Shown: positions 1,476-50,418, numbered from the stretch's first letter. The stretch: 64,000 nucleotides of DNA from an uncultured Candidatus Saccharibacteria bacterium (GCA_964385105.1 CAYLMU010000001.1:258252-322251), one strand, 5' to 3'. Notes: generated by a model from the sequence alone, not told the origin. Numbers and translations are program-made.

Positions 1476-2102
1476 ATGAAAATAGATATTTTTGATAAAA
1501 ACGGAAAATCTGTAGAAAAAGCCACATTATCTGATGAGGTTTTTGGTATTGAGCCAAGAACAACATTGCTAAGACAGTATATAAGAGTTGTTCAAAATAA
1601 TAAAAGACAAGGCACATCAGCGGCCAAAACACGAGCCGAAGTAAGTGGTGGCGGTAGAAAGCCATACAGACAAAAAGGAACAGGTAGAGCAAGAGCCGGG
1701 TCAACACGTAGTCCTTTATGGCGACACGGTGGTATAATCCATGGGCCAAAACCAAAAAGCTGGTCGTTGTCTTTTCCTAAGAAAATGAGGAGATTGGCAA
1801 TGCTTTCTGCGCTTTCAATTAAAGCTGCCGAAAATAAAATTATAGTAGTTGATCAATTAAAGTTTGATGAGCCAAAAATTACAAATATTGAAAGCTTTTT
1901 GAAAAATAATAATGTAGAAACCAAAAAAGGATTAATTGTATTAAATGAAAACGATATGGTTGTTAGAAAAAGTGCAAATAATCTTCCTATGGTAAGAACT
2001 GTGCTTTTAAACAATTTAAGTGCATATGATGTTCTTAAGTCAGACACGCTTATTTTTACAAAAGATTCGCTTGAGAAGTTAGAAGAGAAATATAAGGCAT
2101 AA
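1476..2102 (+). CDS. rplD: 50S ribosomal protein L4
   Basis: 208 aa; L4 signature (GGGRKPYRQKGTGRAR); position after rplC. Confidence 0.9.
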   Translation: MKIDIFDKNGKSVEKATLSDEVFGIEPRTTLLRQYIRVVQNNKRQGTSAAKTRAEVSGGGRKPYRQKGTGRARAGSTRSPLWRHGGIIHGPKPKSWSLSFPKKMRRLAMLSALSIKAAENKIIVVDQLKFDEPKITNIESFLKNNNVETKKGLIVLNENDMVVRKSANNLPMVRTVLLNNLSAYDVLKSDTLIFTKDSLEKLEEKYKA

Positions 2103-2105
2103 AAT

Positions 2106-2402
2106 ATGAATTTAAGTAAAGTTATAAAAAAACCAATAATTACCGAAAAAAGTATTTCAGGGCAAAATGCTCAAAATAAATATTTTTTTGAGGTACACAG
2201 AAGCGCATCAAAAGGTTTAATTAAAGAAGCTGTTGAAAATATGTTTGGTATAGATGTTGTGGATGTAAGAACGAGCATTGTTCCTGGTAAAAAGCGCCGA
2301 ATTTTAAGAACAAGAAAATTTACAAAGCTTCCTGCATGGAAAAAAGCAATTGTAACAGTTGCCGAGGGGCAGGAAATCAAACTGATTAAAGAAGGAAAGT
2401 AA
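2106..2402 (+). CDS. rplW: 50S ribosomal protein L23
   Basis: 98 aa; position between L4 and L2; L23-like sequence. Confidence 0.88.
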
Positions 2403-2403
2403 G

Positions 2404-3231
2404 ATGATAAAAAAATACAAACCGACAAGTCCGGGAATGAGGACACGAAAAACAATAAAAAGAGACGAAATAACAAAAAATCGTCCTGAAAAATCATTGA
2501 CTAAGCCGCTAAAAGGAGCAGTCGGTCGAAATAATGGCAGAATATCTATAAGAGCCAGAGAACGTGGTGCAAAAAAGCATTATAGAATAATTGACTTTAA
2601 ACGTGACAAAAAAGACATTCCTGCAAAAGTAGCTGCAATTGAATATGATCCCAACAGAGGGCCTAATATTGCTTTATTACATTATGCAGACGGAGAAAAA
2701 AGATATATATTAGCTCCTGAAGGTTTGGAAGTTGGCATGACCGTCATGTCGGGAGAAAATTCTGACATTAAAGTTGGAAATGCTTTACCTCTTGAAAAAA
2801 TACCACTTGGGTTTGAAGTTCATAATATAGAAATCAGCCCCGGTAAAGGAGGACAATTAGCTCGAGGTGCAGGTAATAAAGGTGTTTTATTGGCAAGAGA
2901 TGCAGGCATGGTGAATATAAAGTTACCAAGCGGAGAAGTTAAAAGAATAAGAGCTATGTGTTATGCTACAATCGGTGCGCTAGGTAATGCAGATGAAAGA
3001 CACACAAGACTTGGAAAAGCCGGAAAGAAAAGACACTTAGGTAGAAGACCACAAGTTAGAGGACTTGCTATGGCAAATCCAAAGGATCATCCGCATGCAG
3101 GTTCATATAGTGATACCGGTACAGGACATCCAAAAACTCCGTGGGGCAAGCCTACTAAAGGTTTTAAAACTAGAAAAAGAAAGCATACTAATAAGTATAT
3201 AGTTACACCAAGGCGTAAGAAGAAACGCTAG
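2404..3231 (+). CDS. rplB: 50S ribosomal protein L2
   Basis: 275 aa; L2 motifs ([24 protein letters not shown]). Confidence 0.95.
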
Positions 3232-3242
3232 TTAGGTAAAAT

Positions 3243-3518
3243 ATGGCAAGATCACTTAAAAAAGGTCCGGTAATAGATGAAAAGCTGATGAAAAAGCTTA
3301 ATAAAATGAAAGAATCCGGGCAGAAAAAACCAATAAAGACCTGGGCTAGATCCAGCACAATTACTCCTGAGATGGTGGGATATACTTTTCAGGTGCATAA
3401 CGGAAGAATTCACATAGATGTTTATGTGACCGAAGCAATGGTAGGTCACAAACTTGGAGAATTTTCACCAACAAGAACATTTAGAGGTCATTCATCCAAA
3501 AAAGCAAAAATGAGGTAA
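3243..3518 (+). CDS. rpsS: 30S ribosomal protein S19
   Basis: 91 aa; MARSLKKGP..., HNGR motif. Confidence 0.95.
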
Positions 3519-3522
3519 AAAT

Positions 3523-3873
3523 ATGAATAAAGCTTTAGTATACGCAAAAAGTAAATATGTACGAACATCCGTTAAAAAGACGCGACCTGTATTGGATTTG
3601 GTTAGAGGTAAAGATGTGAATGAAGCCAAAAAAATACTAAGATTTCATCCGGCAAAACCTGCAAAGTTGCTTTTGAAAACATTAAATTCTGCGGTTTCAA
3701 ATGCAAGGCATAATCTGGATTTAAATGAGAAAAACCTGTATATTTCAGAATTGTATGTTAATGAGGGTCCAACAATGAAACATGGTCAGTTTGTAGGTAG
3801 AGGAAGATTCAACCCTATTTTAAAAAGGACATCTCATATAGTTGTAGGTTTATCTGAAAGGGACAAGAAATAA
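3523..3873 (+). CDS. rplV: 50S ribosomal protein L22
   Basis: 116 aa; position and L22-like sequence. Confidence 0.88.
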   Translation: MNKALVYAKSKYVRTSVKKTRPVLDLVRGKDVNEAKKILRFHPAKPAKLLLKTLNSAVSNARHNLDLNEKNLYISELYVNEGPTMKHGQFVGRGRFNPILKRTSHIVVGLSERDKK

Positions 3874-4505
3874 TGGGACAAAAAATACACCCCCACGGTT
3901 TTAGACTTGGAATAATAAAAGACTGGAAATCCAAATGGTATGTTGACCAGGATAAATTTGGTGATTATGTTGTTGAAGATTTTAAAATTCGTCAATTTTT
4001 GGATAAGCAGCTAAGTACCGCAGGACTGGAATCGGTAATTATTGAGAGGTCGCCAAATGAAGTGAATATTATGGTTCGTGTGTCTCGCCCGGGATTAGTT
4101 ATTGGTAGAGGTGGTTCAGGTGTGGAAGAGCTTGAAAAGAAGCTTCGTAAATTAACCGAGTCAAAGCTAAAACTCACTGTAGAAGAGGTAAAGTCTCCGG
4201 AGCTTAATGCAGCACTTGTTGCAGAATATATAGGAAGACAATTTAAAAGAAGAATTCCGTACAGACGTGCAGTGAATTCTGCAGTTCAATCTGCAATGGA
4301 TAAAGGTGCCAAGGGTATAAAAATAAGAGTTTCAGGTTTATTAAGCGGAGGAAACTCTATTGCAAGAACCGAAACATATGAAAGAGGCTCTGTTCCGACA
4401 CAAACATTAAGAGCTAACATAGATTATGCACAAAAAGATATTCATTTAATTTACGGAACCGTAGGTGTGAAGGTTTGGATTTATCATGGAGAGGAAGAAA
4501 TTTAA
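3873..4505 (+). CDS. rpsC: 30S ribosomal protein S3
   Basis: 210 aa; MGQKIHPHGFRLG start, KH domain (GRGGSGVEEL). Confidence 0.95.
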   Translation: MGQKIHPHGFRLGIIKDWKSKWYVDQDKFGDYVVEDFKIRQFLDKQLSTAGLESVIIERSPNEVNIMVRVSRPGLVIGRGGSGVEELEKKLRKLTESKLKLTVEEVKSPELNAALVAEYIGRQFKRRIPYRRAVNSAVQSAMDKGAKGIKIRVSGLLSGGNSIARTETYERGSVPTQTLRANIDYAQKDIHLIYGTVGVKVWIYHGEEEI

Positions 4506-5129: not shown

Positions 5130-5369
5130 ATGGCTAAAAAAACATTTAAAGGATCAGTAGTTTCGGATAAGATGCAAAAAACCGTGGTAGTAGCGGTTGA
5201 GCTTCCGAAAAAACATCCTTTATATAACAAAGAAATAAAGAATACAAAAAGGTTTAAGGCACGAAATGAAGTTGATGCTAAATTAAACGATATTGTTGTT
5301 ATTGAAGAATGCAGACCTTACAGCAAAGAAGTTACATGGAAAGTGGTGGAGGTAGTTTCTGCCAAATAA
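5130..5369 (+). CDS. rpsQ: 30S ribosomal protein S17
   Basis: 79 aa; GSVVSDKMQKTVVV OB-fold start. Confidence 0.9.
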   Translation: MAKKTFKGSVVSDKMQKTVVVAVELPKKHPLYNKEIKNTKRFKARNEVDAKLNDIVVIEECRPYSKEVTWKVVEVVSAK

Positions 5370-5386
5370 TTTAGAAAAGGGAAAAT

Positions 5387-5755
5387 ATGGTACAAATTGG
5401 CACAACATTAAATGTAGCAGACAACTCGGGAGCAAAACTACTAAAAATTGTAGGTATACCCGGTCATTCAAAAAAGAAAGTAGCTAAAGTCGGAGATATT
5501 GTTACATGTGCTGTCAAAGGTGCTTCATCAAGGGGAGTAGTTAAAGACCATAGTGTGGTAAAAGTAGTTATTGTGAGAACAAAAAAGGAAACCAGAAGAA
5601 ACGACGGTTCATACATTAGATTTGACGATAACGCAGGTGTTGTGATTAATAAAGACAAAAACATGCTGGGAACAAGAATTTTTGGGCCGGTTGCAAGGGA
5701 ATTAAGAGACCAGGGTTATTTAAAAATAGCTTCATTGGCTAAAGAAGTTTGGTAA
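5387..5755 (+). CDS. rplN: 50S ribosomal protein L14
   Basis: 122 aa; [17 protein letters not shown] start. Confidence 0.95.
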
Positions 5756-5761
5756 AAATAT

Positions 5762-6070
5762 ATGAAAATAAGAAAAAATGACAAAGTAAAAATTATAGCA
5801 GGAAAAGATAAGGGTAAAACCGGGAAAGTTATTGCTGTGCTTACGGATAAAAATAAAGTTATAGTTGAGGGTGTTAATTTAGTTAAAAAACATATTAAAA
5901 AAGGTCAAGGCAGCGAAGAAGGCGGAATAGTTAATATGGAAAAGCCAATTGATGCGTCAAATGTAATGTTTATTGATGAAAAGTCAGGTTTACCCGTAAG
6001 ACTTGGATATAAAGTTGTAGACGGTAAAAAATATAGAGTTTCTAAAAAAAACGGAGAAATAATTAAATAA
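5762..6070 (+). CDS. rplX: 50S ribosomal protein L24
   Basis: 102 aa; KIRKNDKVKIIAGKDKGKTGKV KOW motif. Confidence 0.9.
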   Translation: MKIRKNDKVKIIAGKDKGKTGKVIAVLTDKNKVIVEGVNLVKKHIKKGQGSEEGGIVNMEKPIDASNVMFIDEKSGLPVRLGYKVVDGKKYRVSKKNGEIIK

Positions 6071-6071
6071 A

Positions 6072-6614
6072 ATGAATAGACTTAGAACAGCATACAAAGA
6101 AAAAGTTCAGAATCAATTAGTGGAAGATCTTGGTTTATCTAGTATAATGGAAGCTCCTAAGCTCCGAAAGATTGTTGTTAACGCAGGTATTGGAGATTTT
6201 AAAGATAACAAGGAAGCATTGGATTCATTTGTAGAAGAGTTAATGCAAATTACAGGTCAGAAACCGGCACCCAGAGCTGCACGAAAATCAGAATCGGGAT
6301 TTAAGATAAGACAGGGAGATGTAGTTGGGTACTCTGTAACCTTAAGAGGTGAAAGAATGTGGGCTTTTCTTGATAAGTTTATAAATATTGTATTGCCAAG
6401 AGTAAGAGATTTTAAGGGCTTAAACCCAAAATCTTTTGATGAAAGCGGTAATTATTCGGTTGGGATAAGGGAACATGTTATATTTCCGGAAATAAACCCA
6501 AACAAAGTTAAAGGAATTAGAAGTTTACAGATTACATTTGGTATATCTTCAAAAGAACCTGCACACAGCAGAGTATTACTTGAAAAACTTGGTATACCAT
6601 TTATGAAAGATTAA
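6072..6614 (+). CDS. rplE: 50S ribosomal protein L5
   Basis: 180 aa; L5 motifs. Confidence 0.93.
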
Positions 6615-6615
6615 T

Positions 6616-6801
6616 ATGGCTAAAAAAGCATTAGTACAAAAACAAAAAAAAGGATCAAAATTTTCTGTTAGAGATTACAACAGGTGTAAAATTTGTGGTA
6701 ACTCTCGCGGGTTTATGAGAAGATTTAAAATTTGTCGTAAATGTTTTAGGGAACTCGCACACAAAGGTGAGATTCCGGGTGTAAAGAAGTCAAGCTGGTA
6801 A
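6616..6801 (+). CDS. rpsN: 30S ribosomal protein S14, type Z (zinc-binding, 61 aa)
   Basis: [20 protein letters not shown] shows a C-x2-C ... C-x2-C zinc ribbon; position between L5 and S8. Confidence 0.9.
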
Positions 6802-6803
6802 AT

Positions 6804-7205
6804 ATGAGTAAAGATTTATTATCAAACATGTTAAGCACTATTCAAAATGCAGCCCTTGTTAAAAAGGAGTTTGTAGAAGTGCCTTTTAGTAATGAATGCT
6901 TGGCTGTGGCCGAAGTTTTAAAAAATCATGGTTATTTAACTGACGTAAAAACTTTTAAAGAAAAAGGAAAATATTACAAAAAGTTAAGATTAGATATTGC
7001 TTATAAATCAGACGGCACTCCAAAATTAAGTTCAGTTCAAAGAGTATCAAAACCAGGAAGAAGATTATACAAAGGCACATCAGCTATTGGAAGTGTTATG
7101 GGAGGATATGGTTTGCTTGTTGTTTCTACTTCCCGCGGGGTTATGTCGGGTGAAGAGGCAAAAAAGAAAAAATTAGGCGGAGAAGTTGTTTGTAGGATAT
7201 TTTAA
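6804..7205 (+). CDS. rpsH: 30S ribosomal protein S8
   Basis: 133 aa; position and S8-like sequence. Confidence 0.9.
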   Translation: MSKDLLSNMLSTIQNAALVKKEFVEVPFSNECLAVAEVLKNHGYLTDVKTFKEKGKYYKKLRLDIAYKSDGTPKLSSVQRVSKPGRRLYKGTSAIGSVMGGYGLLVVSTSRGVMSGEEAKKKKLGGEVVCRIF

Positions 7206-7207
7206 AA

Positions 7208-7750
7208 ATGTCAAGAATAGGAAAAAACCCAGTTTCAATACCAAGTGATGTTACCGTTCAAATAAATAACGGTGTTATAAATGTTAAAGGACCTAAAGGT
7301 GAATTAAGTTATGAAACACGACCGGAGATTGATGTAAAAGTGGTAGAAGATAAGGTGGTTGCCGAGGTAAAAATTGACACAAAACAGTCAAATGCTTTGT
7401 GGGGTTTGACACAATCTTTAGTAAAAAATATGATTGAAGGCGTAACAAAAGGATATGAAAAGAAATTGGAATTGGTTGGTGTTGGATATAGGGTAAAAAG
7501 TGTGAATCCTACTGAGGTAAGCATAACAGTTGGATATTCGCATCCTGTGGAATTTAAGGCTCCGGAAGGCGTTACTTTGGATGTAGAGGGTACAACCGAA
7601 CTAACAGTAAAAGGAATAGATAAACACCTGGTCGGGCAGACTGCGGCCAACATCAGAAAAATAAGAAAACCCGAGCCATATAAAGGTAAAGGAATAAAAT
7701 ATGCAGACGAAGTAGTTAGAAGAAAACCGGGTAAAACAGGTAAAGTTTAA
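7208..7750 (+). CDS. rplF: 50S ribosomal protein L6
   Basis: 180 aa; MSRIGKNPVSIP start. Confidence 0.9.
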   Translation: MSRIGKNPVSIPSDVTVQINNGVINVKGPKGELSYETRPEIDVKVVEDKVVAEVKIDTKQSNALWGLTQSLVKNMIEGVTKGYEKKLELVGVGYRVKSVNPTEVSITVGYSHPVEFKAPEGVTLDVEGTTELTVKGIDKHLVGQTAANIRKIRKPEPYKGKGIKYADEVVRRKPGKTGKV

Positions 7751-7758
7751 AGGAAAAT

Positions 7759-8118
7759 ATGTATCACGTTAAACTAAGAACAGGAAAAGAAAAAAGAAAG
7801 CTAAGAGTTAGAAAGAATATTTTCGGTACTCCAGAAAGGCCAAGGCTTTCTATTTTTAGATCAAATAAATATTTATATGCTCAGCTTATTGATGATGAAA
7901 AAGGAACTACAATTGTTTCGTTATCATCAAATGATGTAAAAAAAACTCATGCTGAAAACAAAAAAGTGGATGCAGCGTTTGAATTGGGTAAAAAACTTGC
8001 AAATAGCGCCAAAAAAGCTAAAGTTACAAAAGTAGTATTTGATCGAAGCGGGTACAAGTATCATGGTAGAGTAAAAAGTTTTGCAGATGGTGTCCGTGAA
8101 GGCGGTTTGGAATTTTAA
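7759..8118 (+). CDS. rplR: 50S ribosomal protein L18
   Basis: 119 aa; position and L18-like C-terminus (GYKYHGRVK..ADGVREGGLEF). Confidence 0.9.
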   Translation: MYHVKLRTGKEKRKLRVRKNIFGTPERPRLSIFRSNKYLYAQLIDDEKGTTIVSLSSNDVKKTHAENKKVDAAFELGKKLANSAKKAKVTKVVFDRSGYKYHGRVKSFADGVREGGLEF

Positions 8119-8120
8119 TT

Positions 8121-8585
8121 ATGAATAGAGGATTTAAACAAGATAGAGAATTTGAAGATAGAATTGTAGAAACTAAAAGAGTTTCAAAAAAAACCCGCGG
8201 AGGTAATAAAATCGGGTTTACTGCTTTAGTTGTGAGCGGAAATAGAGACGGAAAAGTAGGGTTTGGGCTTGGAAAAGCTCCGGACATTTCTTCTGCGATT
8301 CAAAAAGGTATTAAACTTGCAAAACGCAACATGATTGAAGTAAATCTTACTGAACACGGCTCTATTCCACATGAAATTACAGAAAAATACAAAGCATCCG
8401 TTGTAAAGCTCATGCCTGCTCCTGAAGGTTCGGGGGTTATTGCCGGCGGCGCTGTAAGGCACATTGTTGAATTGGCAGGAGTAAAAAATATTTCGGCCAA
8501 ATTAATCGGCTCTAATAATAAAATGGCTACAATTCAGTGTACTGTTAATGCTTTACAAAAATTAAAGTCTGAAAGTGAAAAATAA
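8121..8585 (+). CDS. rpsE: 30S ribosomal protein S5
   Basis: 154 aa; S5 dsRBD and C-terminal motifs (GFGLGKA, GSGVIAGGAVR). Confidence 0.95.
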   Translation: MNRGFKQDREFEDRIVETKRVSKKTRGGNKIGFTALVVSGNRDGKVGFGLGKAPDISSAIQKGIKLAKRNMIEVNLTEHGSIPHEITEKYKASVVKLMPAPEGSGVIAGGAVRHIVELAGVKNISAKLIGSNNKMATIQCTVNALQKLKSESEK

Positions 8586-9029
8586 ATGAAATTAGATAAT
8601 TTAAACAAATTAAAAGGTGTTAAATCTGCAAAAAAACGAAGAGGTCGTGGTGCAGGTAGTGGAAAAGGTATGCATACCACAGGGGCTGGTCACAAAGGGC
8701 AAAAAGCAAGAGCAGGAAATAGTATGCCATTTGGATTTGAGGGCGGTCAGGTTCCTTTATACAAGAAACTACCAAAGCTTGGAGGTTTTAGAAGCTTAAA
8801 CCCAAAAAAAGTTGCAATAATCAACTTATCTAATTTAAATAAGTTTGATGAAGGTGCAGTGGTTACTCCTGAAAGTATTGTTGAGAGTGGTATGATTAAC
8901 TTTATACCAAGACACGGCGTGAAAGTATTGGCAAACGGGGAAATAGAAAAGAAACTTACGTTAAAAGGCTTTTTGTTTTCGGAATCGGCAAAGCAAAAAC
9001 TTGAAAAAGCAGGCTGCAAAATAGAATAA
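8586..9029 (+). CDS. rplO: 50S ribosomal protein L15
   Basis: 147 aa; RRGRGAGSGKGMHTTGAGHKGQKARAG; its start abuts the S5 stop directly (no L30 gene). Confidence 0.92.
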   Translation: MKLDNLNKLKGVKSAKKRRGRGAGSGKGMHTTGAGHKGQKARAGNSMPFGFEGGQVPLYKKLPKLGGFRSLNPKKVAIINLSNLNKFDEGAVVTPESIVESGMINFIPRHGVKVLANGEIEKKLTLKGFLFSESAKQKLEKAGCKIE

Positions 9030-9036
9030 TTAATTC

Positions 9037-10311
9037 ATGATAAAAGCACTAAAGTTACCTCATTTAAGAAGAAAAATTCTTTTCACATTTTTAGTTATTG
9101 TTATTTTTAGATTTTTGGCATTTATACCTGTTCCCGGTGTTGATGTAAGCGCGGTTAAAAGTTATGTTGAATCAAACCAGCTTTTAGGAATTTATAATTT
9201 ATTGGGAGGTGGGGGTTTGCAAAACTTTTCATTAATTACGCTTGGTTTAGGCCCATATATTAATGCATCCATTATTATTCAGTTGTTTACGGCAATGATT
9301 CCAAGTCTTGAAGAGTTATCTAAAGAAGGAGAATCAGGCCGCGAGAAGATTAATCAGTATACAAGGCTGCTTTCGTTGCCTATTTCGGTAATGCAGGCCT
9401 ATGGAATTTACTTTTTATTGAGCAATCAGGCACAAATAGGTACTCAAAAAGTACTGGGAGATCTTGATGCTTTTGGACTGCTGGTGCTTATTACCTCAAT
9501 GACAGCCGGTTCGATGCTTTTAGTTTGGGTTGGAGATTTAGTTACTGAATATGGAATTGGAAACGGAGTTTCAATACTAATTTTTGCCGGAATTATTAGC
9601 AGTTTACCATTTGCAGCGTTGCAGTTTATTTCCTCGGCTCAATTAATAGGATTGATGAGCATTGTTGTCTTTTTATTTTTAAGTTTGATTGTTATTTTTG
9701 GAGTTGTGCTTGTCAATGAGGGAACAAGAAATATTCCCATCGAATATGGACGTAGGGGTACGTTGTCTCAAAAAGTTTCTAACCACTTACCTATTAAACT
9801 TAACCAGGCCGGTGTTATTCCAATAATTTTTGCTGTTTCTATTGTAACTTTGCCAACAATAATCAGCGGACCATTAAGTGCTGCTTCTCAGCCTTATTTA
9901 TATAACACAGGAATATTTTTGGCACAAAATTTTAACCCTCAATCGTGGGGCTACAACTTGCTTTACTTTTTATTGGTAGTCGGATTCACGTTTTTTTACA
10001 CATTTGTACAGTTTAATCCGGAAAAGATTGCAGATGACATAAAAAGACGCGGAGGGTTTATTCCGGGGATAAGACCGGGTAAATCAACAAAAGAATATTT
10101 GCAAAGTGTTGTTACCAGATTAACTTTATTCGGTTCTGTGTTTCTTGGTCTAATCGCAATATTGCCATACATAGTACAAAATATAACCGGTTTAACAAAT
10201 CTTTCAGTTGGAGGTACAGGATTATTAATTGTAGTATCAGTTGTTTTGGAAACTGTGAGGCAAATACAATCCCAGGCTGTAAATAAGAGTTACAGTAGTT
10301 ATTTAGATTAA
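9037..10311 (+). CDS. secY: Protein translocase subunit SecY
   Basis: 424 aa, 10 TM helices, SecY signature segments; position after rplO. Confidence 0.95.
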
Positions 10312-10332
10312 ATTTGGTAAAATAGAGGGGCT

Positions 10333-10602
10333 ATGATTGATAAATTACAAGCATTTAATCAAGTTAGAAAAATGAAAGCCGAAATGGAAAAGGAGCTGGA
10401 ACAGATTTTTCACCAGGAAGAAAAGGGTGATAATCTGATTTTGTTGAGAGGAGATAAACGGGTAGAAAGAATTGTTATAAACGGCGAAGAAAGAAAAGAA
10501 ATAAAAGATCTTATAAACGAAGCAATGAAAAGTCTTGATAAAAAAGTTGAAAAGAAAATGCGCGGCAGAACGGAAGATATTTTGTCGATGTTTGGAAAAT
10601 AA
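10333..10602 (+). CDS. YbaB/EbfC-like nucleoid-associated protein (89 aa, tentative)
   Basis: Pattern EEKGDNLILLRGDKRVERIVINGEE...KDLINEAMKSLDKKVEKKM resembles the YbaB_DNA_bd family; inserted between secY and adk. Confidence 0.45.
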   Translation: MIDKLQAFNQVRKMKAEMEKELEQIFHQEEKGDNLILLRGDKRVERIVINGEERKEIKDLINEAMKSLDKKVEKKMRGRTEDILSMFGK

Positions 10603-10604
10603 TC

Positions 10605-11216
10605 ATGAGATTACTGTTATTGGGACCTCCAAGTTCGGGTAAGGGTACAATTGGTGAGATGTTGAGTGAAAGGCTTAATATTCCGCTTATTGGCATGGGA
10701 AGTATTTTGCGAAGCTTACCCCAAACACATCCAAGGTATGAGGAAGTTGACAAAATTATGGATAGTGGCGGATTAGCCCCAAACGAACTCGTGAGCGGAC
10801 TTTTAAATGAAAGATTGCAACATCCTGATTGTGCAAACGGATACATTATTGACGGTTATCCCCGAGACCCCGACCAATTGGCATTATACGAACCACAAAT
10901 TGATAAAGCTATATTGCTATTGGTGTCAATTGATTCTATTTTCAGACGCGTAACCGGCCGTCGAATTTGTACAAGCGACAACAAACCTTACAACATATAC
11001 ACTCTTCCTGAAGAAGAACTAAAGAAATGTACAGGTGAGTTAATTCAACGAGATGACGACACAGAAGAAGCTTTGACCAAAAGACTGGAAATTTATTTGA
11101 ATAAATCCGTAAAAGTTAGTGATTATTATAGAAAAAAAGGAATTCTTTATGAGGTTAGCGCAGAACCGCTTCCACAGGAAATAGTAGAAAGCATAGAAAA
11201 ACTTTTAAATGATTAA
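10605..11216 (+). CDS. adk: Adenylate kinase
   Basis: P-loop GPPSSGKGT; adenylate kinase core and lid segment; canonical position after secY. Confidence 0.9.
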   Translation: MRLLLLGPPSSGKGTIGEMLSERLNIPLIGMGSILRSLPQTHPRYEEVDKIMDSGGLAPNELVSGLLNERLQHPDCANGYIIDGYPRDPDQLALYEPQIDKAILLLVSIDSIFRRVTGRRICTSDNKPYNIYTLPEEELKKCTGELIQRDDDTEEALTKRLEIYLNKSVKVSDYYRKKGILYEVSAEPLPQEIVESIEKLLND

Positions 11217-17056: not shown

Positions 17057-17096
17057 ATGTGAAAAGTAGTAGGTTTTTTTGAAAGGAGGTGAGAAG

Positions 17097-17675
17097 GTGA
17101 AAAAGCTAATTTATGTTTATGCTTCGCTTGCTGCTTTGGTTTTGGTTGTAGCCGGTGTGACGTATGCAGCGTTTTCTGATAAAGGCAACGTGTTAGGTTC
17201 GACTTTTTCTGTAGGCAGTGCGGATATAAAGTTACTAAATGACATAACACAAGGATTGGGTGAGGGTAATCTTGTTGAAGAAAAAGCAGGTCCGAATTTT
17301 AACAACATAAGTCCATTCTGGACGAAAGATTACCTGATGAAAATCTATAACAACGCTGCTACTCAAATTAGTTTAAGTTCCAATTCAAATTATGAGACGG
17401 CAAACGACCCCATGGAGCTTAGACAAATAATATTTGTTGAACCGTTTGAATGGAATGACAACAATAGTGATGGTGTATTGGATGCCGGTGAACTTGGGAC
17501 TTCGTATGGAAGAAAGACAATTGTGAAATGGAAAACCGAGGGTTTTAATTTGGGAAGTGTTGATGCAGGTGCAGTAAAAAGTTTAGTGTTAAGGTTTTCT
17601 ACTGATGCTGTTTCTGACACAAAGCAAGGTGCTAGTGCTTTGTTTGATTTTCAGTTTAGTTCTTTAGGGTTGTAA
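17097..17675 (+). CDS. Secreted protein with a SipW-cognate-class signal peptide (TasA/camelysin-like N-terminus)
   Basis: AAAGGAGG SD then GTG at 17097; N-terminus KKLIYVYASLAALVLVVAGVTYAAFSD matches the (T/V)xAxFxD motif of SipW-dependent signal peptides; the rest is Asn/Ser/Thr/Asp-rich. Confidence 0.5.
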   Translation: MKKLIYVYASLAALVLVVAGVTYAAFSDKGNVLGSTFSVGSADIKLLNDITQGLGEGNLVEEKAGPNFNNISPFWTKDYLMKIYNNAATQISLSSNSNYETANDPMELRQIIFVEPFEWNDNNSDGVLDAGELGTSYGRKTIVKWKTEGFNLGSVDAGAVKSLVLRFSTDAVSDTKQGASALFDFQFSSLGL

Positions 17676-17681
17676 TAAGAA

Positions 17682-17709
17682 ATTCTTGCCTACCCGGGAA
17701 GGCAAGAAT
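17682..17709 (+). promoter_or_regulatory. Perfect 9-bp inverted repeat (ATTCTTGCC - TACCCGGGAA - GGCAAGAAT) between the TasA-like gene and the signal peptidase gene
   Basis: Seen directly in the sequence; no U-tract follows, so it may be an attenuator or processing hairpin rather than a full terminator. Confidence 0.4.
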
Positions 17710-17715
17710 AAATAT

Positions 17716-18174
17716 ATGAAGAAAAAAGTTATACCTATTTTAATATCTCTTTTAATAATATGTGCTTATGTAATTGAGTATAGGCCAATGGTTTATATCA
17801 TTGCTTCAGATTCCATGTCTCCGGTAATTAGAAAAGGAAGCCTTATTGTTGTTGTAAAAAAAGATCAATACTCTTTGTATGATGTTGTAACTTATAAAGT
17901 ATCGTCAAAAATGGATACCTATGTTACACACAGAATTAATAGAATTACTGATATTGAGCAAGCTAAGATGTATTATACAAAAGGTGATGCTAACAAACAC
18001 GAAGATTTTTTGCCTATAACACAGGAAGAAATAATAGGTAAGGTTTATTTTGTTATTCCCTATTTTATATATATATTTCATCCGACTTTGTTATTGATGT
18101 TTTTTTATATGCCTGTTGGGTATTTAGCCGGAAGATTAGTAAAAAAGATTGTGTTATTATCATCGTATGAGTAA
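17716..18174 (+). CDS. Signal peptidase I, archaeal/ER-type (SipW-like, S26B)
   Basis: N-terminal TM then the SDSMSP(V) catalytic Ser box; ~150 aa size typical of SipW/Sec11-type peptidases; the TTG at 17686 used by the ORF track lies inside the hairpin. Confidence 0.7.
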   Translation: MKKKVIPILISLLIICAYVIEYRPMVYIIASDSMSPVIRKGSLIVVVKKDQYSLYDVVTYKVSSKMDTYVTHRINRITDIEQAKMYYTKGDANKHEDFLPITQEEIIGKVYFVIPYFIYIFHPTLLLMFFYMPVGYLAGRLVKKIVLLSSYE

Positions 18175-20746
18175 TTTGCTACCTTTAATTACCAGATTTT
18201 TTGAATGGTATATGGTCTATATACCCAAAAGATTGTTCAAACTGGCTCGGGTTTTAATATCGCTAACAAATAACTCAATGGCCTTTACTCTTAATCTTCG
18301 ACTGTTTTTTACCCCTTTATACGGCGACTATACTTGGATAGGAAGATTTATGGGTTTTACGGTCAGAAGTTTTCAGGTAGTTTTTGGGATACTTTTTTTA
18401 CTTGTAACAACATCCCTGCTTTTATTGTTACCGGTATTCTGGTTTGCTGTTCCAATATTGTTGTTTTATGTGCATGAGAGTTTAGTTTTTGTTTTTTATA
18501 TTGCACTGGCAGCTTATTACTTTTCCACAAATAAAAACCGGCCGGCAAAACGTGTTTATGAGGTTAAAAACGATGATGTAAAGAAGAGTTTTAGACCGTT
18601 AGTTTTGGATTTTTATAATCAATCTATGAGGTCAGGTTCAATGCCCAAAAATCTATTAGCTGAAAAAGATATTGTTTTGCTTTTGAAAAAGTCTGAAATT
18701 TATACCGATGAATTTATGAATAAAGTGGTTGAGGTCAAAGCCGATTTTAATACACTGGATCAAGCTGCATACAAGTATGCCACTGAACACGATTCCAGAT
18801 ATGTTGAAGTGGAGCATTTATTTTTAGGGTTATTAAGTTTATTACCTAAACTCGATGTAACACTGGCAGCATACAATTCGTCATTTCATCTAATTGAAGA
18901 AACGGCCAAATGGATGACATTTGAAAAAGAAAGCTTAAAAAATGTTTATTTCTGGCAGGAAGATTATGAATTGCCTAAAATGGGCGGTATCGGTAGAGGG
19001 TTAACAGGAAGAGTAACTCCCCAGCTTGATTCTGTTTCGGAAGATTTTACCAAACAAGCTCAAAAAGGAATCATCCAAAATATTGTTGCCCATCAAGACA
19101 AAATAAGTGAGGTAATGGAATTGTTGAGCAGTTCCAATAAAAATCTATTGCTAATAGGGCCTCCGGGGTCGGGGAAAACTTCGGTTATTAAGGGTCTGGC
19201 GGAAAGAATTGTAAAAGGAACTGATGTTAAAGGCGTAAAGTTTAAGCGTGTAGTGAGCATCGATACGGCATCACTAATTGCAGGAAGTAAAACGGTTGGT
19301 GATATTGCTCAAAGGTTTAAAAATATAATGTCGGAAATTAAAGCATCAGGTGACGTGATATTGTTTTTTGATGAAATTCATAACCTGGTCGCCGGGGTAC
19401 AGGGCGATAACTCATCAACAATATTTTCAATATTAGAACCGCATTTAACCGAAGGACATATTCAGTTTATTGGTGCAACAAATCTTGAAAATTATAGAAA
19501 ATATCTTGAACCAAGCGGGTCGTTTTCGACTTTGTTTACTACAATAGAAATTCCTCCTGCGTCGGATGAAGATACATTTGGTGTGCTAAAAACCCAAGCA
19601 AAAAAATATGAAAAAGAATATGGCGTTTTTGTTACCTACCCGTCATTGAGAGAAATTATAGTACTTTCAAAAAAACTAATTCACGACCGGGTGTTTCCCG
19701 ACAAAGCACTGGATATTTTAAATAGAGTTTGTGTAACAGCTGCTAAAGGTACAAAAGTTGTTGACTCTGAAACTGTACGTAAAGTCGTATCTGATATAAC
19801 ACATGTTCCCGTTACGTCACTTTCAGAAGACGAATCTCAAAAATTGTTGAATATTGAAAATGAGATTAAGAGCAGAGTCTTAGGACAGGATCATGCAATT
19901 ATTCAAATATCAAAAGCTTTACAAAGAGCAAGAGTGGGAATTAGAAGTGAGGGAAAGCCAATTGCAAGCTTTTTGTTTGTTGGAACTACAGGGGTAGGTA
20001 AAACAGAAACAGCCAAAGCACTTGCTGAAAAGTATTTTGGAAGTGAAAAGAATATGGTGAGAATTGATATGAGCGAATATCAACAACAGGATAGCATAAA
20101 CAGATTAATCGGTGAGCCGGGAGGCCGCACAAAGGGTATACTTACCGAGGCAATCAGGTCAAATCCATATACTTTGATATTGCTTGATGAGATTGAAAAA
20201 GCATATTCAAATATTTTACTTACATTTTTACAAGTTTTAGATGACGGAAGATTAACCGATTCTTCTGGATTTACCGTGGATTTTTCAAATACGATAATTA
20301 TTGCAACCAGTAACGTTGGTACCAGATCGATTCAGGACGTTGTGCAAAGAGGCGGTACATTTGAAGAGATAAATGAGATAGCAATGAGGGATGTTCGAAG
20401 TCATTATGCCCCCGAGTTTCTAAACAGATTTACGGGAATTATTGTATTTAGACCTTTAACTGTAGATGTTGTGAAAAAAATAGCAGAACTTACACTCCAG
20501 AAGGTGCGAATAATGGCTGAGGCTAAAAGTATTAAAGTAAGTTTTAAACCTGAGCTTATAGATGAGCTTGTGAAACGAGGATACAATGTTGAATGGGGTG
20601 CAAGGCCTCTGCGAAGATTAATTGAAGATACAGTTGAGTCTCACTTGGCAATGAAGATATTATCAAAGGATTATATTCAAGGCGATGAAGTAGAAGTGGG
20701 GCTTGAGGTTTTTGAAGAGGAAAGAATACCCACAGCTTTGTTATAA
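18149..20746 (+). CDS. Clp/Hsp100-family two-ring AAA+ ATPase with an N-terminal transmembrane anchor (ClpC/ClpA-like, no obvious M-domain)
   Basis: ~130 aa hydrophobic N-terminus (2-3 TM); Clp_N-like repeat (VEHLFLGLLS); D1 Walker A GPPGSGKTS; D2 Walker A GTTGVGKTETAKALA plus sensor motifs. Confidence 0.8.
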   Translation: MCYYHRMSNLLPLITRFFEWYMVYIPKRLFKLARVLISLTNNSMAFTLNLRLFFTPLYGDYTWIGRFMGFTVRSFQVVFGILFLLVTTSLLLLLPVFWFAVPILLFYVHESLVFVFYIALAAYYFSTNKNRPAKRVYEVKNDDVKKSFRPLVLDFYNQSMRSGSMPKNLLAEKDIVLLLKKSEIYTDEFMNKVVEVKADFNTLDQAAYKYATEHDSRYVEVEHLFLGLLSLLPKLDVTLAAYNSSFHLIEETAKWMTFEKESLKNVYFWQEDYELPKMGGIGRGLTGRVTPQLDSVSEDFTKQAQKGIIQNIVAHQDKISEVMELLSSSNKNLLLIGPPGSGKTSVIKGLAERIVKGTDVKGVKFKRVVSIDTASLIAGSKTVGDIAQRFKNIMSEIKASGDVILFFDEIHNLVAGVQGDNSSTIFSILEPHLTEGHIQFIGATNLENYRKYLEPSGSFSTLFTTIEIPPASDEDTFGVLKTQAKKYEKEYGVFVTYPSLREIIVLSKKLIHDRVFPDKALDILNRVCVTAAKGTKVVDSETVRKVVSDITHVPVTSLSEDESQKLLNIENEIKSRVLGQDHAIIQISKALQRARVGIRSEGKPIASFLFVGTTGVGKTETAKALAEKYFGSEKNMVRIDMSEYQQQDSINRLIGEPGGRTKGILTEAIRSNPYTLILLDEIEKAYSNILLTFLQVLDDGRLTDSSGFTVDFSNTIIIATSNVGTRSIQDVVQRGGTFEEINEIAMRDVRSHYAPEFLNRFTGIIVFRPLTVDVVKKIAELTLQKVRIMAEAKSIKVSFKPELIDELVKRGYNVEWGARPLRRLIEDTVESHLAMKILSKDYIQGDEVEVGLEVFEEERIPTALL

Positions 20747-20756
20747 TACACAATGA

Positions 20757-21758
20757 ATGGAAGAAGCAAAATCCAGACTGGAACAACTAAAAAGTGATCT
20801 CTTTATTGACGAAAAGCGTCAAAAAATCTTACAACTTGAAGAGCGTTTGCAGGATGAATCAATTTGGAATGAATGGGAAGAAGGAAAACGTGTTTCTCAA
20901 GATTTGGCTGAGTTAAGGCGGGATATAGAAGATTATGAAATGCTTGAGTTAATGTTGGCGGAGGGTGATTTGGATGCGTTTAACAAGGAATTTAAAAAAG
21001 CTGAGGTTAAAGCATTTTTGTCGGGTAAACATGATAAGGACGATGCTATATTGTCTATTCATGCCGGACAGGGTGGTACCGAAGCAATGGACTGGGCTGA
21101 GATGCTTTGGCGAATGTATTCACGTTTTGCTGAGAAAAAAGGTTGGAAAGTATCTGTAATAGATTCAACACCCGGGGATGAGGCCGGTATAAAGAGTGTA
21201 ACCCTTGAAATAACCGGATTGTATGCTTATGGATTTTTGAAAAATGAGTCAGGTGTTCATCGACTTGTGAGGCAATCTCCGTTTAATGCAGATAATTTAA
21301 GGCAAACATCATTTGCACTTGTGGAAGTTGTTCCATTAATTGATGAAGATGTTGAGGTAGAAATAAAAGATGAAGATATAGAGTTTGAAGCATTCAGGTC
21401 GGGAGGGCATGGTGGTCAGAATGTTAATAAAGTGTCTACTGCGGTAAGAATTAAACATATTCCTACAGGTATTGTGGTTGAATGTCAGGAAGAGCGCCAT
21501 CAAGGTAAAAATCGTGAAAAAGCTATGAAAATTTTGAGATCGCGATTATATGCCCTTGAACTCAAAAAACTTGAAGAAGAAAAAAATAAATTAAAAGGCG
21601 AATATAAGACTCCGGGGTGGGGAAATCAGATTAGAAATTATGTATTGCACCCTTATAAATTAGTTAAGGATTTAAGAACTGAGGTAGAAAGCACTCAGCC
21701 TGAAGCTGTTTTAGATGGGGAACTTACAGAATTTATAGATGCCGAAATTAAACTTTAA
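20757..21758 (+). CDS. prfB: Peptide chain release factor 2 (no programmed frameshift; short N-terminus)
   Basis: SPF tripeptide-anticodon motif and GGQ motif; 333 aa. Confidence 0.85.
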
Positions 21759-43340: not shown

Positions 43341-44477
43341 ATGAAAGTTGCAGTTGTAATACCAACTTATAATGAGGCAGAGAATATTAAGCAGTTAATT
43401 CCTGCGCTAAACGATGAGTTTAAAAAAATACCCCAACATGAATGTCATATTTTAATTGTGGACGGAAATTCTCCTGACGGTACCGGAAGTGTCGTAAATG
43501 AACTTAAAGAAGCATATTCCAATGTTCATCTGTTAACCGAAAAAGAGAAAAAAGGTCTTGGGGCAGCATATGTGTATGGGTTTAGGCACGCAATGGATGC
43601 ACTTAGTGCCGATATTATAGTAGAAATGGACGGGGATTTTCAGCACAACCCCGAAGATGTGGCTATTATGCTAAAAGAAATCGATAACGGGTACGATTAT
43701 GTTGTAGGTTCACGATTTATTGCTGGCGGGAGTATTCCCAAAGACTGGGAGTTATATAGAAAATTGTTAAGTTGGGGTGGAAATTTGTTTTCAAAAGTTG
43801 TGCTTGGTATGTGGTCTTTTAATGACTTCACTTCAGGTTTTAAAGCATCACGCGTAGAAGGATTTGCTAACAAACTTGATTTTGATAATATTTTGTCTCA
43901 AGGTTTTGCTTACAAAATTGACCTTTTGTACCGTATGCACAAACTTGGAGCAAAAATAAAAGAAGTTCCAATAACTTTCAGATCACGAGGCAGAGGAGCT
44001 TCAAAAATGGAAAAAAACAACTTTATTGACTCGTTGAAAGTGGTTTTGTTAATAAGAATGAGTGAAAACAAGAATTTTTTTAAATTTGTTATCGTTGGGT
44101 TTTTAGGACTATTTACCGATATTCTATTATCAAACGGTTTTAGACTTACCGACATGGCTCCAAACGTAGCGGCTTCTGTTGCTGCGCTTTGTGCAATGCT
44201 TGTTACATTTTTACTAAATAATTTCTGGTCATTTCGTGATAGGCCAATTAAAAGCAACAAAAAAAGAATCCAGAAGTTTGTTTTATATGTATTGTCGTCA
44301 TTTGTTCCTATAATTTTCAGATATTATTTTGTTGCATATATGATTAGTTTATTTGGTAATACGTTTATTATTTACAATCTTTCACTTTTTGTAAGTATTT
44401 CTTTTGGATTAATCTGGAATTTTACCGTTTACAGCAAAATAATCTGGAAAGAGCAGAATTTGAGTACTTTGGAATAA
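43341..44477 (+). CDS. GT2 polyprenyl-phosphate hexosyltransferase (DPM1/GtrB-like) fused to a C-terminal GtrA-like flippase domain
   Basis: VVIPTYNE...DGNSPDG...EMDGDFQH GT-A motifs; C-terminal 4-TM block typical of GtrA. Confidence 0.8.
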   Translation: MKVAVVIPTYNEAENIKQLIPALNDEFKKIPQHECHILIVDGNSPDGTGSVVNELKEAYSNVHLLTEKEKKGLGAAYVYGFRHAMDALSADIIVEMDGDFQHNPEDVAIMLKEIDNGYDYVVGSRFIAGGSIPKDWELYRKLLSWGGNLFSKVVLGMWSFNDFTSGFKASRVEGFANKLDFDNILSQGFAYKIDLLYRMHKLGAKIKEVPITFRSRGRGASKMEKNNFIDSLKVVLLIRMSENKNFFKFVIVGFLGLFTDILLSNGFRLTDMAPNVAASVAALCAMLVTFLLNNFWSFRDRPIKSNKKRIQKFVLYVLSSFVPIIFRYYFVAYMISLFGNTFIIYNLSLFVSISFGLIWNFTVYSKIIWKEQNLSTLE

Positions 44478-44503
44478 GTAAGTAGAATTAAGTTGGAGGA
44501 TTT

Positions 44504-45256
44504 ATGGAATATTCAATAGTTACGCCCGCATATAATGAAGCCGATAAAATAACTACTACGTTACGTCAGATGCTAGGTTTTATGAGGGAGTACAGTACGG
44601 AATTTGAGATCATTATTGTTGACGACGGTAGTAAAGACAACACAGCTCAAATAGTTGAAGAATACTCAAAAGAAAATCCTGAAGTACGAGTTATTCGCAA
44701 TAAACATAAAGGAAAAGGCCCGGCCGTTTGGAGAGGAATGATGGAAGCACAAGGAGATTTAATTTATATGGCTGACGCCGATCTTGCAACACCTATTTCA
44801 GAACTTAAAAAACTTTCAAACTGGATTAAAGACCATGACTTTGATATTGTAATCGCGTCACGAGAGGGTGTTGGGGCAGTACGGGTAAAAGAGCCTTTTT
44901 ACAGACATTTTGTGGGGCGTGTATTCAACTTTTTAGTACAAACGGTAGCACTTCCCGGAATTAAAGATTCGCAGTGCGGATTTAAACTTTTTAAAAAACA
45001 AGCAGCAAAAGATATTTTTGGTAAGCTTAAGATTTATGGAGACGACGCACCCGAGCGTGACCAGCCGTTTTTTGGTGCATTTGATGTGGAAGTATTGTAT
45101 TTGGCAAAAAAGCTTGGTTATAAGGTAAAAGAATTGCCGGTTACGTGGAATTTTGTAAAAACTCCAAGATTTAATTTTATTTACAATTCATTTAACATGG
45201 CAAAAGATGTATTAAAAGTGCGAATTAACGATATGCGTGGTGTTTATGAAGTGTAA
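44504..45256 (+). CDS. GT2 glycosyltransferase (soluble, DPM1/GtrB-like)
   Basis: IVTPAYNE, IIVDDGSKDNT, DADL(A) DxD-type motif. Confidence 0.8.
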   Translation: MEYSIVTPAYNEADKITTTLRQMLGFMREYSTEFEIIIVDDGSKDNTAQIVEEYSKENPEVRVIRNKHKGKGPAVWRGMMEAQGDLIYMADADLATPISELKKLSNWIKDHDFDIVIASREGVGAVRVKEPFYRHFVGRVFNFLVQTVALPGIKDSQCGFKLFKKQAAKDIFGKLKIYGDDAPERDQPFFGAFDVEVLYLAKKLGYKVKELPVTWNFVKTPRFNFIYNSFNMAKDVLKVRINDMRGVYEV

Positions 45257-45271
45257 TTTATATATTTTACA

Positions 45272-46465: not shown

Positions 46466-46468
46466 ATC

Positions 46469-50401: not shown

Positions 50402-50418
50402 GGTATAATTATTTAGAT

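Follow-up and report, generated by a model that had tools for sequence, protein, structure and literature searches.

In a 64,000-nucleotide stretch of DNA from an uncultured Candidatus Saccharibacteria bacterium (GCA_964385105.1 CAYLMU010000001.1:258252-322251), referred to below as the window, we analyzed the gene of a membrane-anchored Clp-like ATPase (mClp) and found its product to be an integral-membrane derivative of the class-1 (two-ring) Clp/Hsp100 proteins. From N- to C-terminus, mClp comprises a membrane module, a domain modelled with the Clp_N fold, a linker, two AAA+ modules (D1 and D2) and a ClpB_D2-small domain. The chassis is that of a recognizable, known Hsp100 protein, and what is new is the membrane domain together with the systematic loss of Hsp100-defining features. 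Judging from its sequence, mClp probably works unlike known Clp unfoldases, and we propose by analogy that it is a Torsin-like, non-threading, membrane-tethered Hsp100 derivative.

Gene model and N-terminal membrane module

The gene occupies a single uninterrupted open reading frame (ORF) on the + strand, from 18149 to 20746, of which the earliest possible start is a TTG at 18149. A preliminary description of this DNA had reported one continuous ORF over this interval with two AAA+ modules, and both points were confirmed. We preferred the ATG at 18167 as the start codon, because an identical 859-amino acid (aa) product, derived by gene callers from a 468,751-bp contig, is present in public protein collections, because 29 orthologues begin at the position aligned with this ATG, and because the codon overlaps the stop codon of the upstream gene sipW as ATGAGTAA. 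An extension up to the TTG is possible, without support. Residue numbers are therefore counted from ATG 18167. Shine-Dalgarno-like motifs precede 8 of 29 genes examined across the window, where many genes overlap or lie about 10 nucleotides apart, and this rarity made ribosome-binding-site analysis uninformative for the choice of start.

Pfam matches covered AAA (PF00004, aa 333-446, E 1.6e-28), AAA_lid_9 (PF17871, E 2.1e-11), AAA_2 (PF07724, aa 603-762, E 2.6e-53) and ClpB_D2-small (PF10431, aa 770-850, E 1.3e-18), with the Walker A motifs GPPGSGKT and GTTGVGKT in the two AAA+ modules. Tandem AAA+ modules followed by ClpB_D2-small, as seen by Pfam and by alignment with ClpB, ClpC and ClpA structures, place the protein in the broad class-1 Clp/Hsp100 group. 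The best overall sequence match in the PDB was Thermus thermophilus ClpB (1qvr, E 3e-128). Among NCBIfam models, ClpB, ClpA, ClpV, ClpG and ClpK ranked highest, and every score fell far under the equivalog cutoff, with 528 bits against 1232 for ClpB (TIGR03346 / NF008118) and 479 against 993 for ClpA (TIGR02639). These comparisons point to a divergent Clp/Hsp100 protein that is orthologous to no named member.

The N-terminal module is well defined and confidently modelled (predicted local distance difference test, pLDDT, 94). Up to residue 67 the protein is amphipathic and basic (8 K/R versus 2 D/E), and only aa ~69-120 passed the Kyte-Doolittle 19-mer threshold. Two AlphaFold models, one of aa 1-284 (21 sequences, pLDDT 88.4) and one of aa 1-131 (51 sequences, pLDDT 94.2), had the same layout: a 35-residue helix (aa 4-38), a short helix and a conserved loop (aa 46-56), then a long kinked helix (57-102), an H-E-S turn and a second helix at about 104-121 (pLDDT 88-94). 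The helix over the first transmembrane (TM) segment, TM1, was modelled as 57-102 or as 57-86 plus 88-102. Eight K/R residues precede TM1, none lies in the turn and eight follow TM2, a distribution that, by the positive-inside rule, indicates a two-helix TM hairpin with both ends inside, which would keep the ATPase cytoplasmic. According to the models, the helix of aa 4-38 would be the cytoplasmic or interfacial portion of the module. The preliminary description had envisaged about 130 hydrophobic residues with two to three TM helices; the hydrophobic N-terminus is real, but it is limited to a two-helix hairpin at aa ~69-120, preceded by a conserved amphipathic and motif-bearing region rather than being hydrophobic throughout.

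The signature motif of the module (consensus LFxPL[FY]GDY[TS]xxGR...FR..R) includes the invariant residues P50 and R67, and D54 and G59 are at least 90% conserved across fused and stand-alone forms. TM2 leads into the basic stretch TNKNRPAKR, with P126 conserved as part of P-x-K-K/R. Neither the module nor any of ten stand-alone homologues matched a Pfam or NCBIfam family, and no relative of the module was found in the PDB. We thus consider this ~125-aa membrane module a novel, previously undescribed domain.

Homologues of the N-terminal region were sought by an exhaustive phmmer search, with aa 1-284 only as query, against 1.84 billion representatives. Word-indexed searches gave just 1 fragment for the N-terminal 300 aa and 5 for the corresponding alignment. 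The phmmer search returned 93 cluster representatives, about 30 of which are 780-880 aa long and aligned from their own residue ~7. The homologues share the N-terminal pattern W-W ... P ... LFxPL[FY]GDY[TS]xxGRxxGxxFRxxRI, followed by the hairpin and PxKK. A scan of one genome per GTDB species gave 38 loci, nearly all from WWE3/Patescibacteria metagenome-assembled genomes (MAGs) and one from a complete curated WWE3 genome. The N-terminal fusion noted in the preliminary description recurs in these loci, and dozens of divergent proteins from Patescibacteria have it too. All 29 full-length orthologous loci encode module and ATPase in a single ORF. When the ATPase part was used as query, a hydrophobic N-terminus was present in 112 of the 112 nearest full-length relatives, and 100 of them carried the strict motif pattern. 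The N-helix and motif are about as conserved as D1 (mean identity 45.5% versus 48.8%), suggesting that the fusion is real and selected.

Proteins of about 105-125 aa that comprise the module alone were also among the phmmer homologues; in the split loci of the table, the module genes encode about 110-140 aa. In every case examined, the module gene lies 0-45 nucleotides upstream of a gene for an 817-868-aa two-ring Clp-like ATPase, which gives five independent split arrangements (two Parcubacteria genomes, L037 and L038; L039; L040/L041; L042-L044). The ATPases of the split form bear N-terminal TM segment(s) of their own; pore-loop tyrosines are missing from them, and the Walker B motif of D1 is lost (IPHIH, IPDIH, IADMH). 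Since module and ATPase are fused in some lineages and encoded by adjacent genes in others, a classical fusion/fission signature, they are predicted to be physical partners, and the two arrangements together make a clean Rosetta-stone prediction. The lineages sampled with mClp are WWE3, Parcubacteria, Nomurabacteria and MAGs labelled Saccharibacteria, and the family, so far seen there only, appears restricted to Patescibacteria, also known as the Candidate Phyla Radiation (CPR). The window itself most likely belongs to WWE3/Katanobacteria. The features by which we propose to define this family, namely the module motif, the TM hairpin and a linked tyrosine-less two-ring ATPase, are all present in the window protein.

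These data also bear on an artefactual origin of the architecture, in which a separate small ORF was joined to the ATPase by a sequencing or assembly error, or a soluble isoform is made from an internal start. The module is truly a separate gene in Parcubacteria-type genomes, and a sigma-70-like match (10/12) at 18590-18619 precedes the in-frame ATGs at 18626 and 18641. However, the frame is intact in 29 of 29 loci from independent assemblies, about 30 divergent full-length representatives exist, the exact 859-aa product is on record, and the split-form ATPases are membrane proteins as well. Promoter- and terminator-like matches in this AT-rich region were at chance level (promoter-like, 35 versus 29 +/- 6), the internal Met is not conserved in homologues, and a start there would truncate the Clp_N fold. 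The intact loci and the 112 hydrophobic N-termini rule out a separate ORF or a sequencing error, a possibility raised in the preliminary description, and an artefact of either kind is hardly credible. As to the internal start that it had also raised, the chance-level frequency of promoter-like matches and the unconserved Met speak against a soluble isoform, and Shine-Dalgarno motifs were too rare to be informative.

Between the module and D1, Pfam recognized a single Clp_N half repeat (aa 207-230 in TTG numbering) at E 0.003, with 18.2 bits against a cutoff of 20.7. A Foldseek search of the PDB with aa ~138-257 of the model retrieved only N-domains (ClpC/ClpC1, ClpB, Hsp104 and HSP101), with TM-target values of 0.5-0.59 and prob ~1 and with weak E-values of 0.08-1. 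The Clp_N repeat of the preliminary description thus stands as a modelled fold, at fold level only, while at the sequence level it is reduced to the sub-threshold half repeat. The following linker has the family consensus W..DY....GG.NRGWTGR.TP.LD, with W263 and G274 invariant. Its mean identity of 57.5% is second only to that of D2, whereas the linker between N-domain and D1 is unconserved in ordinary Clp proteins. It is placed at the entrance of the D1 ring, where AlphaFold confidence is low, and could either take over the function of the pore entrance or plug it.

AAA+ rings and substrate-handling loops

To compare motifs, we used an alignment to T. thermophilus ClpB and Staphylococcus aureus ClpC and a 32-sequence family alignment. 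D2 has the highest mean identity (67.7%) and an intact catalytic set, namely Walker A and B, sensor-1 (TSN), the arginine finger (FLNR) and sensor-2 (GARPLRR). D1 Walker A and B are kept by most family members. The two D1 arginine fingers (ERRF) are both lost in the window protein, which reads STLF, and most members have ARLF. The D1 pore loop KYRGEFE is changed to KTVGDIA in the window protein, and its tyrosine is missing in 31 of 31 aligned members and in the split-form partners. As for D2, the pore-1 loop GAPPGYVGYEEGGQLTE corresponds to GEPGG----RTKGILTE in the window protein; in other members it is GAPPGQKDAEAGGQLTE-like, or wholly deleted in five (P0023, P0027, P0033, P0055, P0060). The GYVG tyrosine is replaced or its loop deleted family-wide, with P0070 (GEVGY) retaining the second loop tyrosine. 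No aromatic residue at all was found in 98 of the 104 D2 loops recovered from the nearest relatives.

mClp has no M-domain: the two Walker A motifs are ~275 aa apart, and the alignment to ClpA is unbroken, whereas that to ClpB falls into two stretches between which the M-domain region is missing. A ClpP-docking loop was looked for between sensor-1 and the arginine finger, and neither an IGF/IGL/VGF tripeptide nor the 11-residue loop insertion of ClpC was present there; the pattern [ILVM]G[FLM] was absent in 31 of the 32 family members. The IGL/F motif is a requisite for ClpP binding (PMC5540906). These results bear on whether mClp is an ordinary ClpC/ClpA-type subunit of a ClpP protease with an extra N-terminal anchor, as suggested by its ClpA-like spacing without M-domain and by the annotation of relatives as 'ATP-dependent Clp protease ATP-binding subunit (ClpA/ClpC)'. 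Other relatives are named 'AAA family ATPase' or 'hypothetical protein'. In terms of sequence, a ClpP partnership is contradicted by the missing docking loop and by scores far under the equivalog cutoffs. A tblastn search of the 64-kb window and of the fetched loci found no clpP, a weak argument because the sampling is partial and the genome behind the window measures ~0.5-0.9 Mb. We regard a ClpP partner as very improbable and the 'Clp protease ATP-binding subunit' label as a mis-annotation.

The label of unfoldase or disaggregase given in the preliminary description did not hold up well, since the pore-loop tyrosines are gone from both rings and neither a ClpP loop nor an M-domain is present. 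mClp could still be a genuine membrane-tethered unfoldase, disaggregase or extractase, akin to FtsH without its protease or to Msp1, that threads substrates by non-canonical pore residues. As known for FtsH and Msp1, the N-terminal anchor would orient the N-domain/D1 entry face to the membrane. D2 has its complete set of catalytic motifs, a Clp_N substrate/adaptor domain appears to be retained, the aromatic-rich linker at the D1 entrance could stand in for the pore-loop aromatics, and the gene neighborhood is of a secretion/envelope type. Weighing against this reading, the pore-1 tyrosine is missing family-wide in both rings, the whole D2 loop is deleted in several members and D1 is catalytically degenerate in the split relatives. 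In ClpA, ClpB and Hsp104, such tyrosines matter in both rings for the processing of substrates and are known to drive threading (PMC5540906). On balance a threading enzyme seems unlikely, though it deserves serious consideration.

Genomic neighborhood

The window has a G+C content of ~35% and carries ribosomal-protein, secDF, recA and aminoacyl-tRNA synthetase genes. The gene mClp lies directly downstream of, and overlaps, a SipW-like gene, as the preliminary description had stated; the TIGR02228 match and the stop/start overlap bear this out. Along radC, the SipW-substrate gene, sipW, mClp and prfB, the successive gaps are 22, 10, -8 (overlap) and 10 nucleotides. The last four genes form an apparent tight operon, and prfB is probably co-transcribed with mClp. 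Coordinates of these and the other features are collected in the table.

Features of the mClp region of the window and, in the last four rows, of split loci (coordinates in the respective locus)
Feature	Coordinates	Strand	Evidence or remarks
SipW-dependent-signal-peptide secreted protein (TasA/camelysin-like)	17079..17675	+	TIGR04088, 19.6 bits (cutoff 19)
sipW, SipW-type (archaeal-type) signal peptidase I	17686..18174	+	TIGR02228, 81.7 bits (cutoff 51.85)
mClp (membrane-anchored Clp-like ATPase)	18167..20746	+	859 aa, TAA stop, ORF analysis
Amphipathic basic helix, aa 4-38, conserved W14 and P20	18176..18280	+	AlphaFold pLDDT >85-96; alignments A1/A2/A3
Signature motif LFFTPLYGDYTWIGRFMGFTVR, aa 46-67	18302..18367	+	Family conservation
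Predicted TM1, aa 69-102, long kinked hydrophobic helix, conserved W92 and P96	18371..18472	+	Hydropathy, AlphaFold
Predicted TM2, aa 105-120, after polar turn H-E-S	18479..18526	+	Hydropathy, AlphaFold, charges
Divergent Clp N-domain fold (modelled), aa ~138-257	18578..18937	+	Foldseek of AlphaFold model; Pfam half repeat
Linker, aa 258-290, here YFWQEDYELPKMGGIGRGLTGRVTPQLD	18938..19036	+	Family alignments
D1 AAA+ module	19037..19846	+	Pfam, alignments
D1 Walker A GPPGSGKT	19157-19180	+	
D1 pore loop AGSKTVGD, no tyrosine	19280-19303	+	
D1 Walker B ILFFDEIH	19358-19381	+	
D1 arginine-finger position, STLF instead of ERRF	19523-19537	+	
D2 AAA+ module, best-conserved part	19847..20476	+	Pfam, alignments
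D2 Walker A GTTGVGKT	19982-20005	+	
D2 pore-loop-1 remnant GEPGGRTKGILTE, YVGY deleted	20111-20149	+	
D2 Walker B LILLDEIEKA	20174-20203	+	
D2 arginine finger within PEFLNRF	20411-20431	+	
ClpB_D2-small C-terminal domain	20477..20743	+	PF10431, E 1.3e-18
Sensor-2 GARPLRR	20597-20617	+	
prfB, peptide chain release factor 2	20757..21758	+	10 nucleotides downstream of mClp
Split module / ATPase, L037	7980-8306 / 8323-10929		
Split module / ATPase, L038	1290-1712 / 1714-4254		
Split module / ATPase, L040	5001-5342 / 5342-7840		
Split module / ATPase, L042	5001-5339 / 5353-7806		

Synteny is strong within WWE3, with the order rplQ-rplM-rpsI-(helix-turn-helix gene)-radC-sipW substrate-[sipW]-mClp-prfB. 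The SipW-substrate gene is the upstream neighbor of mClp in most of the 38 loci and is kept far more consistently than sipW, which was detectable in only about one third of the WWE3 loci. The SipW-substrate linkage is limited to WWE3, being absent in L045-L048 and in the split forms. Three divergent fused loci (L045, L046, L047) have other upstream genes (an nfo-like endonuclease, secA) and prfB directly downstream of mClp, and beyond it a small ORF, ftsE, ftsX and the gene of an M23 peptidase; in L047, where secA is directly upstream, the order is secA-mClp-prfB-ftsE-ftsX-M23. Neither the SipW genes nor the prfB cluster lie beside mClp in L048. The sole broadly conserved neighbor is thus prfB, within a housekeeping cluster of the secA/prfB/ftsEX type, and its adjacency to mClp could reflect inherited housekeeping synteny or a real operon link. 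In one locus (L032, 7971-11609), the mClp and prfB frames appear as one ORF, owing to a genuine fusion, to loss of the stop codon or to misassembly. In three Patescibacteria contexts that otherwise differ, L045 (5123-5959), L046 (5026-5901) and L037 (10941-11810), mClp adjoins an AP_endonuc_2 (endonuclease IV-like) gene.

Such a context would suit an ATPase driving a machine for secretion, assembly or translocation, in which a collar of 12 TM helices forms or gates a membrane conduit. The motor would then serve the export or maturation of envelope proteins (SipW-dependent, TasA/camelysin-like), or would cooperate with Sec or FtsEX. The SipW-substrate gene lies upstream of mClp in almost all WWE3 loci, with sipW between them in about one third, and secA-mClp-prfB-ftsE-ftsX-M23 is found in L047 with similar arrangements in L045 and L046. 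In the window, secD/secF lie 3 kb downstream of mClp. A precedent is HSP101 of the Plasmodium translocon of exported proteins (PTEX), whose N-domain was among the fold matches (4irf, 4iod). However, there are no pore-loop tyrosines for pushing a polypeptide, the SipW-substrate linkage is missing outside WWE3 and in the split forms, and the external turn between the TM helices has 3 residues, with no obvious polar pore lining. The secA-prfB-ftsEX adjacency may also be historical, as it is an ancestral housekeeping arrangement in Firmicutes-like genomes. We consider a secretion ATPase rather improbable, and a specific functional link to SipW/TasA is weakened by an adjacency that is confined to WWE3.

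No clpX, ftsH, lon or second Clp gene, and no other protease or chaperone gene, was found in the 64-kb window. A role in defence was considered and rejected: PADLOC gave generic AAA-domain matches only (DolB, PDC-M37B, D2 core) and none among the neighbors. Elsewhere in the window (43341-63252), we observed a large envelope-glycan cluster with glycosyltransferases of families GT2 and GT4, several PMT/PMT_2-type membrane glycosyltransferases, a DUF2079 protein, a Wzx-like flippase and three consecutive ~397-aa GT4 paralogues (45272-48855).

Proposed mode of action and relation to known systems

With confidence that is evenly balanced, we favor a reading in which mClp, an Hsp100 derivative integrated into the membrane, depends on neither ClpP nor DnaK, uses D1 as its assembly ring and D2 as its motor, and remodels without processive threading. 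Like its relatives it would form a hexamer, in which 12 TM helices and six amphipathic helices make a collar in the cytoplasmic membrane and the N-domain/D1 face is turned to that membrane. D1 would bind ATP and act mainly as an assembly or regulatory ring, because in the window protein its pore loop is degenerate and both arginine fingers are lost, and in the split relatives Walker B is lost. D2 would be the ATP-hydrolysing motor, because it has an intact set of catalytic motifs and the highest conservation in the protein. Clients near the membrane, bound by the Clp_N domain and the conserved linker, could then be remodelled or set free by cycles of ATP hydrolysis in D2, or these cycles could act on the membrane module and its partners. 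The clients would probably come from the secretion/envelope sphere, which is the weakest step of this proposal. Without an M-domain there would be no Hsp70/DnaK coupling, and a processive unfoldase or disaggregase is unlikely because ClpP docking, DnaK coupling and aromatic pore loops are all missing.

Several points weigh against this favored reading. The hexamer, the ATPase activity and the membrane insertion are inferred from homology and prediction. Loss of the aromatic pore-loop residues does not prove that translocation is absent, as other loop residues, the pore-2 loops or the W/Y-rich linker could grip substrates. The ARLF arginine and the D1 Walker A and B motifs are kept in most members, so that ATP hydrolysis by D1 may persist in many of them. 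There is a residual chance that a soluble isoform is made from an internal start. The absence of ClpP, of a canonical ClpB/ClpC and of FtsH from the 64-kb window is poor evidence on the genome as a whole, and the genomic context may be mostly housekeeping synteny (ribosomal proteins, radC, prfB), neutral with regard to function, with a SipW link that is lineage-restricted.

Minimal Patescibacteria genomes tend to keep indispensable functions only and, since mClp is conserved across the sampled lineages with such genomes, it is probably important for envelope or proteostasis biology. More tentatively, mClp might be an ATP-driven membrane machine that occurs throughout Patescibacteria, probably of ancient origin and possibly essential, either a non-threading, Torsin-like remodeller or the gate of a 12-helix collar, a reading for which our confidence is low. 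Such a mechanism would set it apart from all bacterial Clp/Hsp100 proteins characterized so far. If so, it could take part in envelope and secretory-protein handling or in membrane remodelling in ultra-small episymbiotic cells, and the ~125-aa module would represent a new family of membrane protein domains for recruiting or regulating AAA+ rings, working in cis in the fused proteins and in trans where the genes are separate.

The preliminary description had called the architecture unusual relative to ClpA, ClpB, ClpC and ClpE, and we agree with this view. Literature searches on membrane-anchored Clp/Hsp100 proteins and on Clp proteins of CPR/Patescibacteria/WWE3 gave no description of a membrane-integrated Clp/Hsp100 protein or of this module; a TM7x transcriptome paper names just a 'predicted clp protease'. 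mClp resembles ClpB/Hsp104 in its two AAA+ rings, modelled Clp_N-type N-domain, ClpB_D2-small domain, D2 catalytic motifs and lack of a ClpP loop. It differs from them by the absence of the M-domain coiled-coil and of the pore-loop tyrosines, by reduced or lost D1 arginine fingers and by its integral membrane module, and its score is under half of the ClpB equivalog cutoff. With ClpA, ClpC and ClpE it shares the order N-domain-D1-D2 without a long M-domain, and ClpA aligned in one stretch over aa 287-849. Unlike these proteins, it is membrane-anchored and lacks the IGF/IGL/VGF loop, the pore-loop tyrosines and the short M-domain of ClpC. To our knowledge, all characterized bacterial Hsp100 proteins (ClpA, B, C, E, L, G/K and V) are soluble and thread their substrates with pore-loop tyrosines.

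In FtsH and Msp1/ATAD1, an N-terminal TM anchor is likewise known to turn a hexameric AAA+ ring with its substrate-entry side to the membrane. These are single-ring members of the classic AAA clade with aromatic pore loops, and they have no homology to the mClp module. FtsH also bears a C-terminal M41 zinc-metalloprotease domain, whereas mClp gave no Peptidase_M41 match and has a Clp-type domain set. Recruitment of Clp/Hsp100 members to membrane-associated machines has parallels in PTEX HSP101, which is docked on a membrane pore, and in ClpV of type VI secretion. Both are soluble, partner-docked, substrate-threading proteins that retain their pore-loop tyrosines.

The closest functional analogy is offered by Torsins, membrane-associated Clp/Hsp100 relatives without aromatic pore loops, which were therefore judged unlikely to thread (PMC5425593). 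mClp likewise associates, by prediction, with the membrane through an N-terminal hydrophobic domain and lacks aromatic pore loops. Torsins have a single AAA+ module, are luminal and, having no arginine finger of their own, need LAP1/LULL1. In contrast, mClp is a two-ring, cytoplasmic, bacterial protein that has kept the D2 arginine finger (FLNR). The resemblance is one of convergent degeneration, not of membership. mClp thus offers a natural experiment on the capacities of an Hsp100 ring that does not thread, and bacteria would have in it their own version of the unsolved Torsin problem.

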